DNA of 4,325 nucleotides from a virus. Its lineage: Duplodnaviria > Heunggongvirae > Uroviricota > Caudoviricetes. Below the pieces are notes generated by a model, which was given only the letters and a program-made list of their open reading frames with translations, was not told where the DNA came from and searched no databases. The DNA lies in the IMG/VR virus record IMGVR_UViG_2534681939_000025; one strand, 5' to 3'. Below, in pieces: positions 1,998 to 4,325 of the stretch. The translations under genes and the position numbers were made by a program. The first letter of the stretch is position 1; every line of letters starts with the position of its first letter.

Positions 1998-2182
1998 CCA
2001 CTGACGGCCAACGCCGGGAGCCGTGATTATGGCATTCAGGCTCTGCTAAAAATGCCAGATAACATTCCGGCCTCCCCCGATTCAGGTTATAAATGACACA
2101 ATATCTTGACAACATCCGTCACTGTCTGTCAGAAAATGTACTGCCATATAGAAGCAACATGTGAAGTACATCTATCCTTTTG

Positions 2183-2224
2183 AGCCAGCACCTCTCCACC
2201 GAAAGTCAGTGCTGGCTGTTTTTT
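2183..2224 (+). terminator. Plus-strand terminator-like hairpin (copy A): stem AGCCAGCAC/GTGCTGGCT, 17-nt loop, then GTTTTTT
   Basis: Stem 2183-2191 pairs with 2209-2217, followed by T6. The 17-nt loop is larger than in typical intrinsic terminators, so function is uncertain. The T-run is on the plus strand only. Confidence 0.35.
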
Positions 2225-2331
2225 CCTTAATAAAGCATCTGTAACTGAAACAATCCGCATATTGATAATATATTGACAGGCATCATTGCTGTCTGTGAAA
2301 AATAAGTCTCTACAAACATATAAGGCCTTTT

Positions 2332-2369
2332 AGCCAGCGTCTTCTTTCAGGTCAGTCGCTGGCTTTTTT
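2332..2369 (+). terminator. Plus-strand terminator-like hairpin (copy B): stem AGCCAGCG/CGCTGGCT, 17-nt loop, then TTTTT; abuts the esterase stop codon
   Basis: Stem 2332-2339 pairs with 2357-2364, followed by T5 (2365-2369). Lies directly 3' of the esterase stop (2371-2373) but is oriented as a terminator for plus-strand (antisense) transcription. Confidence 0.35.
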
Positions 2370-2370
2370 A

Positions 2371-3855
2371 TTATGCTGCCGGTGCATTTATCTCCAGCAC
2401 CAGACTTTCTATCTCAACGCCATACGCTGCATTTTTTGTAACATCCGTCAGCGTCAGCGCATTCAGTCCCAGTGTCATACTGTCTTTTATAACCTGGAAT
2501 GCCGGGCCAGCCACTCCATTCAGTTTCGGAGTAACCGTGGCACTGCCGGCGGTGAACACCAGCTCCAGCGTCTGCCAGTCGTTACCGTAATCGCCGAACT
2601 CCCCCAGCTTCGTGTTTCCGGCTTTCCTGTGATGCATCAGATTCACTCTGCCGTCAGTGGTCTGAGTGAAGTACGACATCAGGAACGGATTACCGGTACC
2701 CGTCATCGCCACACCATCAGGAACGGGAGCATCCGTATACAGATAAATCCCCAGCCCGAACTGATTGTTGGTCAGTGCGCCTGACAGGCGGAACTTACAG
2801 GTCAGTCTGCCGCCCTGTGTCAGCAGGGTAATTGCGTCATCCACCGGATGCGTCAGGGACCAGGTTTTATTGCTCTGCTTGGTGATCTTAAATACACCAT
2901 CTGACAACTGAATTCCGCCATCCTTAATGCTCCAGCCCTGCGCAGCAGCCTCTCCGGCTGCCGGCAGCAGGGAGATTGTGCGAACGGACGTATCTGCAGA
3001 CGGACCTGATGGCGTGTTGCCGCCGGGCGAGGGTTTGATTTCCGGTGCCTTACCACTGATGAAGGCTGAGGTGCGCCCGGCTGCGTTCAGAATAGCGGTT
3101 GCCAGACGATCCGGAATAATGCTCCTGCGCGCCCATGAACTGAAATGTGTCGGGCGGTTTGATGATACCTGGTTTCCATTCGTTCTCGATGCCGCACCGT
3201 AATATCCTGATGCCGGAATATCCGGATCTTCTGCCGGCGCGTTAGTGGCGGTATTGACGCCGTTACCGTCTGTCATGAAGGGCACAAAATAAACGCCCTC
3301 ACTCTCCCTGTTTTTATACCCGCCGTACACGGTGTCGTACTGGGTAGCGTATGTATTTTTCCAGTAATACGTCGTGTCACCACAAATCCACGGCACATCT
3401 GCAGCACTGCCACCATGGCACTGCGCGTTAAACACGGAGAGGTCAGCCCTCGGATGATTCAGCGTACTCATATCCTGCACATCATGCAGACAGTGGTCAG
3501 CCGGAATAATATCGTTATATCTGCAGGCAGCCCCGCCCGGCGTCACTGTACTGCGGCGCGCCAGCTGTTTAATGCGCGGATCCGGAGCATCGTATGAATC
3601 CGGCAGCGGAAGCCCTTCACCGTAAGCCATGGCATTGGACTGCCCGGCCAGTACGATGACGTAGTACCAATCCGGCTCAGATGAACCACCGACCACCACA
3701 TCACCTTCAACAGCAACCGCCTGCATCAGGGTATAAGGCGTAATGGCAACCGGACCACCAAACGGCTGCCAGCCCTCTTTCAGTTTGTGTGTCAGCTTTT
3801 CCGCAAGGTCTGACGGCGACGCCGCCCTGACAACATCATAATGTTTAATCGACAT
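2371..3855 (-). CDS. nanS-p: Prophage-encoded sialate O-acetylesterase, NanS-p-like (SGNH/SASA-type esterase with N-terminal DUF1737-like region and C-terminal probable carbohydrate-binding domain), 494 aa
   Basis: Track ORF 2371..3855; ATG at 3855 with SD GGGAG 7 nt upstream. GQSN esterase serine motif in VLAGQSNAMAYGEG near residue 70. The N-terminal 50 aa resemble the DUF1737 region of prophage NanS-p proteins (from memory). Position immediately upstream of the holin matches where nanS-p sits in Stx-type and other lambdoid prophages. Confidence 0.85.
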   Translation of the reverse strand: MSIKHYDVVRAASPSDLAEKLTHKLKEGWQPFGGPVAITPYTLMQAVAVEGDVVVGGSSEPDWYYVIVLAGQSNAMAYGEGLPLPDSYDAPDPRIKQLARRSTVTPGGAACRYNDIIPADHCLHDVQDMSTLNHPRADLSVFNAQCHGGSAADVPWICGDTTYYWKNTYATQYDTVYGGYKNRESEGVYFVPFMTDGNGVNTATNAPAEDPDIPASGYYGAASRTNGNQVSSNRPTHFSSWARRSIIPDRLATAILNAAGRTSAFISGKAPEIKPSPGGNTPSGPSADTSVRTISLLPAAGEAAAQGWSIKDGGIQLSDGVFKITKQSNKTWSLTHPVDDAITLLTQGGRLTCKFRLSGALTNNQFGLGIYLYTDAPVPDGVAMTGTGNPFLMSYFTQTTDGRVNLMHHRKAGNTKLGEFGDYGNDWQTLELVFTAGSATVTPKLNGVAGPAFQVIKDSMTLGLNALTLTDVTKNAAYGVEIESLVLEINAPAA

Positions 3856-3968: not shown

Positions 3969-4169
3969 GAAAATAAAGGGATAACGATGATAGTTTGAGA
4001 AAAACAGAAATAACACTTTTGTGGCAAAGCATGGTGCCGGGTGCCTCCCGGTGAATTCAGTATCAGCACCTGAATCCGCGATTACCCCATATACCTGCTT
4101 GCTGATCGCCCCACCGCACAGGGGGATTCACCATGCAGAAGTGTTTTTAATAAACAGCAAACAAAAAAA

Positions 4170-4325
4170 TCAAGCATTATGCAGGCTGTTTCTTTTTATC
4201 ACCGGCCACAGCAATACCATAATGCCGCAGACCAGCACCCCATCCGCCAGCACCGACATGATTCTGCTGGTGAAATCCACCATCACCACCAGAAACAGCA
4301 GGAGTGCAGCCACAGTCAGGCGCAG
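4170..4325 (-). CDS. 3' end of a hypothetical membrane-protein gene entering from beyond the window (51 codons visible, stop TGA at 4170-4172)
   Basis: Minus-strand frame open from 4325 to the stop: LRLTVAALLLFLVVMVDFTSRIMSVLADGVLVCGIMVLLWPVIKRNSLHNA. Hydrophobic and rich in CTG/GTG codons typical of E. coli. The plus-strand frame is also open but His/Gln-rich, which looks like its antisense shadow. No family recognised. Confidence 0.4.
   Translation of the reverse strand: MRLTVAALLLFLVVMVDFTSRIMSVLADGVLVCGIMVLLWPVIKRNSLHNA

Follow-up and report, generated by a model that had tools for sequence, protein, structure and literature searches.

Two tandem, co-oriented small RNA (sRNA) units very probably lie between the esterase and holin genes in the stretch of DNA analysed here, a 4,325-nt piece of the IMG/VR virus record IMGVR_UViG_2534681939_000025 that we refer to as the window. 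The window covers the late region of a lambdoid prophage and is presented on the strand opposite to the late operon, with the units in the region 2085-2372. Unit A matches the published sRNA PasA, and unit B, located downstream, is its diverged paralogue. The locus is one that has already been described, namely PasA, an Hfq-binding sRNA locus of pathogenic Escherichia coli prophages, and no new class is needed to accommodate it. What is new here consists of refinements only: the recognition of unit B as a diverged tandem paralogue that probably has its own promoter, the reading of a shared motif as a −35 element with a putative extended −10 element, and the apparent origin of the related PasC locus as an A/B recombinant.

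Two co-oriented units with conserved hairpins

Unit A spans 2106-2224 and unit B spans 2273-2369, both on the + strand and 167 bp apart. They sit in the esterase-holin spacer of ~440 bp and are read against the late operon, a placement that a preliminary description of the window had proposed and that gene and domain calls confirm. Each unit presents, in order, TTGACA, 10 bp, CTGTCTGT, an A-rich block, a U-rich stretch, a hairpin with AGCCAGC/GCTGGCT arms, and a T-run. The combination TTGACA-N10-CTGTCTGT is located at 2106-2129 and 2273-2296, in both cases on the + strand, and has no other match in the window. Only 0.01 matches are expected by chance, and two matches were found in 0 of 200 shuffles. 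The individual elements are listed below.

2106-2111, +: unit A −35 hexamer TTGACA (putative promoter element; perfect consensus)
2127-2137, +: unit A TGt and CAGAAA(AT), putative extended −10 with an 18-bp spacer after TTGACA (read from the sequence)
2130-2137, +: A-rich block of unit A, CAGAAAAT
2141-2224, +: PasA sRNA, major form of ~85 nt, the transcript of unit A (published coordinates mapped by alignment; probe match)
2141-2372, +: PasA minor form of ~236 nt, read-through of terminator A to terminator B (PMC8550237 Table S6, mapped by alignment)
2183-2224, +: terminator A, a 9-bp stem AGCCAGCAC/GTGCTGGCT, G and T6, with UUUU before the stem (Hfq-module-like)
2184-2193, +: published PasA seed GCCAGCACCU, within the 5′ arm of terminator A (PMC8550237 Fig. 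S5 text)
2273-2278, +: unit B −35 hexamer TTGACA (putative; read from the sequence)
2294-2303, +: unit B TGt and GAAAAA(T), putative extended −10 with an 18-bp spacer (read from the sequence)
2297-2303, +: A-rich block of unit B, GAAAAAT
2307-2371, +: unit B RNA, ~60-65 nt if self-initiated; corresponds by mapping to EcOnc51/EcOnc52 and to 'pasA.E2348C_0688.IGR' of the enteropathogenic E. coli (EPEC) data from the sequencing of ligated, interacting RNAs (RIL-seq)
2332-2369, +: terminator B, stem AGCCAGCGtCT/AGtCGCTGGCT and T-run, adjoining the esterase stop codon
2393-2403, −: esterase mRNA site CUGGUGCUGGA, with 8 nt complementary to the PasA seed (direct repeat CCAGCACC at 2185-2192 and 2394-2401)

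Structurally, hairpin A has two 9-bp arms (2183-2191 and 2209-2217) that are 100% complementary and are followed by G and T6 (2219-2224). The arms of hairpin B (2332-2342 and 2354-2364) form a perfect outer stem of 8 bp, next to which stands T5-A-TT. The predicted folding energies are −16.3 kcal/mol (z = −3.3) for hairpin A and −16.0 kcal/mol (z = −3.9) for hairpin B. The eighth stem pair is A2190:T2210 in the first hairpin and G2339:C2357 in the second, and this difference, like all other motif and hairpin features of the preliminary description, was found where that description had located it. Both units have a GC-rich hairpin directly before a U-tract on the transcribed strand, which is the defining arrangement of an intrinsic (Rho-independent) terminator, and published 3′ ends fall on both T-runs. 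No T-run was found after either hairpin on the − strand, and the hairpins are therefore one-directional terminators of + strand transcription. An Hfq-binding sRNA module consists of a U-rich stretch upstream of a terminator hairpin together with a 3′ poly(U) tail (Ishikawa et al. 2012, cited in PMC4104026). Such features are represented here by CCUUUUGAG before stem A and CCUUUUAG before stem B, with U-tails of 6 and 5(+2) nt, respectively. Across the region, coding potential is limited to short unconserved open reading frames (ORFs), none of which is annotated in RefSeq records.

The hairpins are maintained by selection on their structure. In an alignment of 19 distinct hairpin variants with the arms in register, 93.6% of the cells of the 9-bp stem are paired. 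Three pairs carry double-sided changes: pair 7 occurs as C:G, U:A and once as U:G, pair 8 as G:C in 13 variants and A:U in six, and pair 9 as C:G, U:G and U:A. The covariation score of 0.176 compares with 0.098 in shuffled alignments and was reached in 0 of 500 of them, and sliding the 3′ partner by 1-3 columns reduces pairing to 24-47%. Selection on the stem had been proposed in the preliminary description from a single compensatory pair, and the proposal now extends to 19 variants and three compensated pairs. Maintenance of this kind is as expected for functional terminators and Hfq-binding hairpins.

Correspondence to published RNAs

Five 'Pas' sRNAs have been described in EPEC E2348/69 (PMC8550237, Pearl Mizrahi et al. 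2021). PasA lies on the minus strand of NC_011601.1, from 743499 to 743415 in its major form (85 nt) and to 743264 in its minor form (236 nt), and was detected with the probe GCCAGCACTGACTTTCGGTGGAGAG (PMC8550237 Table S6). The window aligns almost identically with the E2348/69 prophage PP2 and with phage 434 across 2000-2420. In this alignment, C2141 corresponds to the PasA start and the final T of terminator A (2224) to the 3′ end of the major form, while the 3′ end of the minor form maps to the T-run of terminator B at ~2372. Positions 2141-2224 are the E2348/69 PasA sequence except that the U-tail is shorter by one T. An exact match to the Northern probe lies on the − strand at 2192-2216, so that the probe detects a + strand RNA. 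The seed GCCAGCACCU is also present, in the 5′ arm of an intrinsic terminator. PasA and PasD2 are reported to flank a sialic-acid esterase gene, with a holin/lysozyme operon adjoining pasA (Zhu, Shabalina & Storz 2026, bioRxiv 10.64898/2026.05.13.724894), and the order PasD/STnc100, esterase, PasA, holin in the window agrees with that report. Because the mapped coordinates, the exact probe match, the near-identical E2348/69 sequence, and the synteny all point to the same RNA, unit A is, as judged from these comparisons, PasA. The 236-nt minor form is read-through of terminator A to hairpin B.

Much is already established for PasA on the near-identical E2348/69 locus. The RNA was detected there by Northern blot, is stabilised by Hfq (log2 fold change of −2.78 in Δhfq), and is expressed under virulence-activating conditions (PMC8550237). 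It is regarded as a trans-acting sRNA with 41 RIL-seq partners, mostly core-genome coding sequences (CDSs) and 5′ untranslated regions (5′UTRs) and including genes of the type III secretion system and the bundle-forming pilus (bfp), and its seed is proposed to lie in the terminator 5′ arm (PMC8550237). The overlap between this seed and the terminator stem has been remarked upon by Zhu et al. (2026).

Unit B corresponds to RNAs that were first reported from enterohaemorrhagic E. coli (EHEC), whose Hfq-bound prophage sRNAs were described by Tree et al. 2014 (PMC4104026). Hfq cross-linking and analysis of cDNA (CRAC) in EHEC Sakai placed EcOnc51 at 2237479-2237555 (+, prophage Sp12) and EcOnc52 at 1181998-1182075 (−, Sp4) (PMC4104026 Table S2), and both have been named as PasA homologues in EHEC (PMC8550237). 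These coordinates refer to an older version of the Sakai genome than NC_002695.2, and the offset between the two was calibrated with landmarks. It is ~0 at Sp4, where the EcOnc08 3′ end falls on a T-run, ~+137 at Sp5, where AsxR was located by its Rfam model (88 bits), ~+140 to +150 at Sp11 (EcOnc24 probe), and +131 to +148 at Sp12 (EcOnc10, which is HnrS). Overall, the shift from the coordinates of Tree et al. 2014 to NC_002695.2 is ~0 at 1.18 Mb and ~+137 to +150 over 1.27-2.24 Mb. With a shift of ~0, EcOnc52 covers 'TCTCTACAAACATATAAGGCCTTTTAGCCAGCG...GCTGGCTCTTTTTTT' in Sp4 (L125, 676 to 599), which is unit B. With a shift of +137 to +148, EcOnc51 covers the same sequence in Sp12 (L124, ~717-804), whereas it would land on unit A if the offset were left uncorrected. 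The EcOnc52 peak start maps to T2307 of the window, and both peaks span terminator B. Their areas are nearly equal (1.09 M and 1.03 M), which fits multi-mapping of one sequence. By this mapping, EcOnc51 and EcOnc52 are both unit B.

The EPEC RIL-seq entry 'pasA.E2348C_0688.IGR' belongs to the same unit. It is always RNA2 in chimeras, has a U-tract value of 7, and has five partners, four of which are CDSs or 5′UTRs; its chimeric ends at 743294-743267 correspond to terminator B. The preliminary description, which had been unable to assign the units to any reported phage-encoded RNA, is superseded in this respect by PasA and EcOnc51/EcOnc52, although not by AgvB or AsxR. Membership in the AgvB/AsxR families was considered and rejected, as the Rfam models RF02702 and RF02703 have no match at E<=1 in the window and none at E<=10 in 2060-2400, and the AsxR promoter and position are unrelated. 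Neither unit matches any family in Rfam 15. An AgvB-like GcvB decoy formed by the CA-rich tracts at 2096-2105 and 2109-2117 was likewise rejected. These tracts precede the 5′ end at ~2141, being located within the −35/spacer region or upstream of it, and so are not in the mature RNA, and the GcvB target mimic CACAACA is absent from 2141-2224 and 2307-2371. The size of HnrS, a multicopy prophage sRNA of 66 nt that ends at an intrinsic terminator and represses hha (Poudyal et al. 2026, PMC13502914), suggested it as a candidate for unit B. This RNA is EcOnc10-12 and lies outside the window, beyond the lysis cassette of related prophages (L128, ~371-436, in Sakai Sp12), and it was rejected.

Unit B is a diverged tandem paralogue of unit A. 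The local alignment score of the two units is 29, compared to 15.3 +/- 2.2 for shuffled sequences, and was reached in 0 of 2000 shuffles. Identities amount to 37 of ~53 positions in the promoter block and 35 of ~48 in the terminator, including a loop-proximal GTCAGT, and the body of unit B is ~17 nt shorter than that of unit A. Zhu et al. (2026, bioRxiv 10.64898/2026.05.13.724894) state explicitly that tandem duplication is not how the pasA copies came about. The tandem copy was missed because PasA served as the search query, and a BLAST search with PasA does not pick up unit B, which has diverged too far.

At the PasC locus of E2348/69 there is only one unit, which combines the promoter and early body of unit A with a B-type stem (AGCCAGCG/CGCTGGCT) directly next to the esterase stop codon. 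BLAST matches (query positions 1-190 and 329-421) locate the join within the repeat TTT(G/T)AGCCAGC. PasC looks like an A/B recombinant, and its join fits either recombination between A and B or an ancestral single unit. Besides having one unit rather than two, PasC differs from the present locus in its loop (TCCTTCAGAGTGGG), and the window contains no match to the PasC probe.

Putative promoters, possible autonomy of unit B, and proposed mode of action

Unit A contains TTGACA-N18(...TGt)-CAGAAA and unit B contains TTGACA-N18(...TGt)-GAAAAA. We infer that the shared motif is a −35 element with an extended −10 element of the form TTGACA-N18-TGn-(C/G)A(G/A)AAA, a reading that would explain why CTGTCTGT is conserved at a fixed distance. 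It was correctly noted at the outset that no canonical −10 hexamer occurs 17+/-1 bp after either TTGACA; instead, a TGn-extended A-rich hexamer is present at exactly 18 bp. The starts predicted from this arrangement, ~2142 for unit A and ~2309 for unit B, fall within ~2 nt of reported 5′ ends, which are at C2141 for both PasA and PasC and at T2307 for the EcOnc52 peak. TTGACA is invariant in 46 distinct unit A sequences collected by BLAST, in esterase-selected loci, and in 32 distinct unit B sequences. Across the BLAST-collected sequences, hardly any change is seen from ~−60 to +1, and variation is greatest in the 5′ body of unit A. A plasmid remnant of 91% identity has no change in the 50 nt over the unit B promoter, while the body, stem, and esterase remnant are changed. 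Compared to the sigma-70 consensus, the −35 is perfect, the A at −11 is present, and the T at −7 is absent, and a consensus scan does not call the motif in either unit.

We lean towards the view that unit B is a separate, self-promoted Hfq-binding sRNA gene of ~60-65 nt, not just the read-through tail of PasA. Unit B with an intact promoter is found without unit A behind three junctions, formed by IS629, an element of the IS3 family, and the perC gene (L125 in Sakai Sp4, L390, and L410). The junctions are located 17-22 nt upstream of the unit B TTGACA, equivalent to ~2250-2256 of the window. In Sp4, where unit A is absent, IS629 lies at the 17-nt distance. Unit B with its promoter is also retained on the plasmid remnant. 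As for the clustering of junctions, either the site is a hot spot for insertion or selection has kept the promoter in place. The two units also differ in their condition dependence. RIL-seq S-chimera fragments under activating and non-activating conditions number 4983 and 116 for PasA (43-fold), 1728 and 91 for PasC, and 119 and 54 for the unit B region (2.2-fold), which is hard to reconcile with a constant fraction of read-through. In addition, the CRAC table of Tree et al. (PMC4104026) has peaks on unit B and none on unit A of the same prophage. With slightly less assurance, we favour the broader proposal that the esterase-holin spacer holds a tandem array of two genes produced by duplication, in which promoter and terminator modules are kept, 5′ bodies diversify, and PasC-type loci are recombinants between terminator repeats.

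At the junction with perC/pch (Pfam PerC, 149 bits), the perC gene is co-directional with unit B, and terminator B may also end the perC transcript.

In the mechanism that we propose, unit A would be transcribed from TTGACA-N18-TGt-CAGAAA with a start at ~2141 and an end at terminator A (2224), and unit B would be transcribed from TTGACA-N18-TGt-GAAAAA as a shorter RNA whose terminator ends at the esterase stop codon. The unit B sequence would also form the 3′ part of the 236-nt minor PasA. Both RNAs carry the Hfq-binding module of U-rich stretch, GC-rich terminator hairpin and U-tail, and would act in trans by short base-pairing on Hfq. PasA targets share a motif complementary to GCCAGCACCU (PMC8550237), and PasA may pair through this terminator 5′ arm with sites of the type CUG(A/G)UGCUGG, one of which is located at the 3′ end of the esterase mRNA. 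The chimera E2348C_0688::pasA is represented by 34 RIL-seq fragments (p = 1.7e-26), and its site is included in the target-motif list (PMC8550237). RNA duplexfold predictions for PasA or unit B with the esterase 3′ end are no better than those for shuffled sequences (67 of 500 and 59 of 500 as good, respectively) and are dominated by long loops. An exact 11-nt repeat, AACATCCGTCA, is also shared on the + strand by the unit A promoter spacer (2111-2121) and the esterase CDS (2440-2450). It was rejected as an RNA-RNA pairing site, as at least 46 loci have ACACCCGTCA in place of the spacer copy while the esterase copy is constant, and no covariation exists between them. The repeat is probably a chance match or a relic.

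Several points weigh against the picture of two self-promoted, trans-acting RNAs. The −10-like hexamers lack the conserved T at −7, and the promoters are read from sequence together with coverage-based 5′ ends. The PasA seed and the esterase site show no covariation across loci, where all combinations occur. The 236-nt read-through form certainly exists, and the unit B region has been treated as the tail of a read-through PasA isoform (PMC8550237). The placement of EcOnc51 depends on the coordinate shift deduced above, CRAC reads of identical copies multi-map so that the Sp4 copy lacking unit A is not independent proof of expression, and S-chimera counts depend on partner abundance and are small for unit B. 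In addition, the mature PasA 5′ end is thought to be cleaved from a longer transcript (Zhu et al. 2026, bioRxiv 10.64898/2026.05.13.724894). If so, TTGACA...CTGTCTGT could be part of a transcribed leader rather than a promoter. Transcription would then begin upstream, at TATATT (2269-2274) for unit B and at CAATAT or TATAAA for unit A, and CTGTCTGT with the A-rich block would constitute a leader with an RNase E or Hfq (ARN) site at which the RNA is cleaved. The consensus scan does return CTGAAA-18-TATATT at 2245-2274 (+), and the A/U-rich GAAAAU context presumably resembles an RNase E site. We nevertheless give this explanation a low probability, because a promoter is the simpler account of a perfect −35 at an identical 18 bp from a TGn-A-rich hexamer in both paralogues, the −10-like hexamers upstream of unit A have no matching −35, and the 11-nt repeat common to the leader and the esterase mRNA does not covary. 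Somewhat less doubtful, although still unlikely, is that the locus holds one gene, with only unit A transcribed, hairpin B acting as a fail-safe terminator that yields the 236-nt form, and TTGACA...CTGTCTGT of unit B persisting as a decaying relic of the duplication. Read-through does occur, PMC8550237 Table S6 annotates just such a major and minor pair with a probe against terminator A, and a G separates the stem of terminator A from its U-tract. A relic is difficult to square with a promoter block that is invariant in 32 distinct sequences while the body and loop vary, and that remains intact on the 91%-identical plasmid remnant and at three independent junctions, which leave ~20 nt of DNA upstream of it. 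The condition dependence of unit B in RIL-seq, ~20-fold unlike that of PasA, and the EHEC CRAC peaks on unit B with none on unit A of the same prophage also speak for two genes.

The remaining alternatives concern function. The preliminary description had offered three options, of which the first, two small RNAs read antisense to the late operon, is upheld in essence, although not as cis-antisense regulators, as the published RNAs are trans-acting and Hfq-associated. A primarily cis-acting role, in which convergent transcription or complementarity to the late-mRNA spacer modulates the esterase, the holin or lysis timing and any action in trans is secondary, appears improbable. Three observations would suit such a role: over the esterase-holin spacer the late transcript is complementary to both RNAs along their full length, chimeras link PasA to the esterase mRNA 3′ end, and the units occupy a fixed site in many prophages. 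However, 12 of 76 otherwise near-identical loci have no unit and an unchanged esterase and holin, the 41 PasA partners are mostly core-genome CDSs and 5′UTRs, and the unit RNAs reach only as far as the esterase stop codon, with no overlap of the CDS. The other two options, hairpins that shield the esterase from antisense transcription and a protein-binding palindrome, found no specific support and would at most describe by-products of ordinary terminators. It is true that the hairpins are perfect inverted repeats and that terminator B ends exactly at the esterase stop codon. Yet the changes preserve RNA pairing, including G:U, and not the DNA sequence, T-runs are present on one strand only, Hfq binds published RNAs that end at both hairpins, and the units themselves are the only antisense transcription that an insulator could block. 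We consider a protein-binding or insulating role very improbable.

Genomic setting, distribution, and related systems

The genes and RNAs that surround the units are all encoded on the − strand of the window, in the late operon orientation.

790-1323, −: lysozyme gene
1374-1652, −: DUF1327 ORF
1722-1931, −: class II (P21-type) holin (Phage_holin_2_1, 111.6 bits; phage 434 annotation)
2371-3855, −: esterase with DUF1737 and DUF6645, convergent with the sRNA units; an internally deleted NanS-p/SASA-type protein (stop codon 2371-2373)
3968-3950, −: strong terminator after the STnc100/PasD-family RNA
3993-4165, −: PR′-type (PR′-proximal) RNA of the STnc100/PasD family (Rfam, 100.9 bits)
4170-4313, −: DUF3927 membrane ORF

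The STnc100/PasD RNA, the esterase and unit A follow the 'PasD2 - esterase - PasA' order of the literature, and the PasD-family RNA here does not carry the UGUGAG seed printed for PasD1/PasD2. The esterase has 494 amino acids (aa) compared to 616 aa in E2348/69, with ~122 aa lost in-frame between two 'RADLS' repeats. A Pfam scan of this protein detected DUF1737 and DUF6645 but not the SASA catalytic domain, and this copy is therefore probably inactive. On the late-operon strand, a terminator-like hairpin with a T-run lies just upstream of the holin start (1983-2009, −), where the phage 434 record also has a terminator, and a second, weaker terminator-like hairpin lies at 2054-2071 (−). Between an 86-aa ORF (452-712, −) and the lysozyme gene is a 13-bp hairpin, AAAACCCCGTTTG...CAAACGGGGTTTT, with a T-rich tail (668-700, +), which could be an antisense-strand or two-way terminator.

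The 26 phage records that match the region at 95-99% identity are mostly those of Stx1a-converting phages, along with H-19B, YYZ-2008 and phage 434. In the curated phage 434 record, both hairpins are labelled just as terminators on the strand that corresponds to the + strand of the window. Of 5426 complete E. coli genomes, 699 (~13%) carry the locus, at a median of six places per genome. Prophages from IMG/VR contain two-unit loci with a constant spacing of 167-169 bp, PasC-type loci, and single units of the A type, as well as B bodies with C-type loops; several copies are disrupted by insertion sequences. The 12 unit-less loci mentioned above come from a set of 76 picked solely through the esterase C-terminus, and have a short unrelated esterase-holin spacer instead, which makes the units an optional, moron-like insert. 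A profile of all units (nhmmer) returned no further, more distant copies in ~330 loci, and a scan of one genome per species for AGCCAGC...GCTGGCT with a T-run returned only generic terminators of unrelated bacteria.

PasA is among the most interaction-rich sRNAs of the accessory genome of EPEC. If unit B is autonomous and the locus is a tandem array, the published exclusion of tandem duplication as a source of pasA copies would have to be revised, and an unnamed sRNA with its own regulation and targets would join the EPEC/EHEC prophage repertoire. Designs for the deletion or knock-down of 'PasA' should allow for a second, probably self-promoted RNA 150 bp downstream, and searches should take into account that the 85-nt PasA query misses the unit B paralogue. 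The promoter module also provides a specific sequence with which regulation under virulence-inducing conditions can be tested.

Compared to the published PasA, unit A is alike in its position between the esterase and holin genes, its orientation, its terminator-embedded seed, and the PasD/STnc100-type RNA beyond the esterase. Differences from the E2348/69 PasA locus are minor: the esterase is internally deleted here, and CUGGUGCUGG, with 8 perfect pairs, replaces CUGAUGCUGG as its target site. EcOnc51 and EcOnc52 are like unit B in sequence except for the lengths of the loop and U-tract. They are on record as Hfq-CRAC peaks, and the literature counts them as 'homologues of PasA', not as a distinct unit that lies downstream. 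AgvB and AsxR are likewise short Hfq-binding prophage sRNAs read against the late operon downstream of PR′, with a conserved 3′ part and a variable 5′ part. However, they are located between a moron and the esterase, upstream of the latter, and their decoy activity is not supported for the units described here. The closest parallels in arrangement are OmrA/OmrB, PrrF1/PrrF2 and Qrr (cited in Zhu et al. 2026), which are also adjacent, co-oriented genes for paralogous Hfq-dependent sRNAs with related promoters and terminators and divergent bodies. The A/B pair differs from these in being phage-borne and in that unit B is a candidate, rather than an established, autonomous gene.

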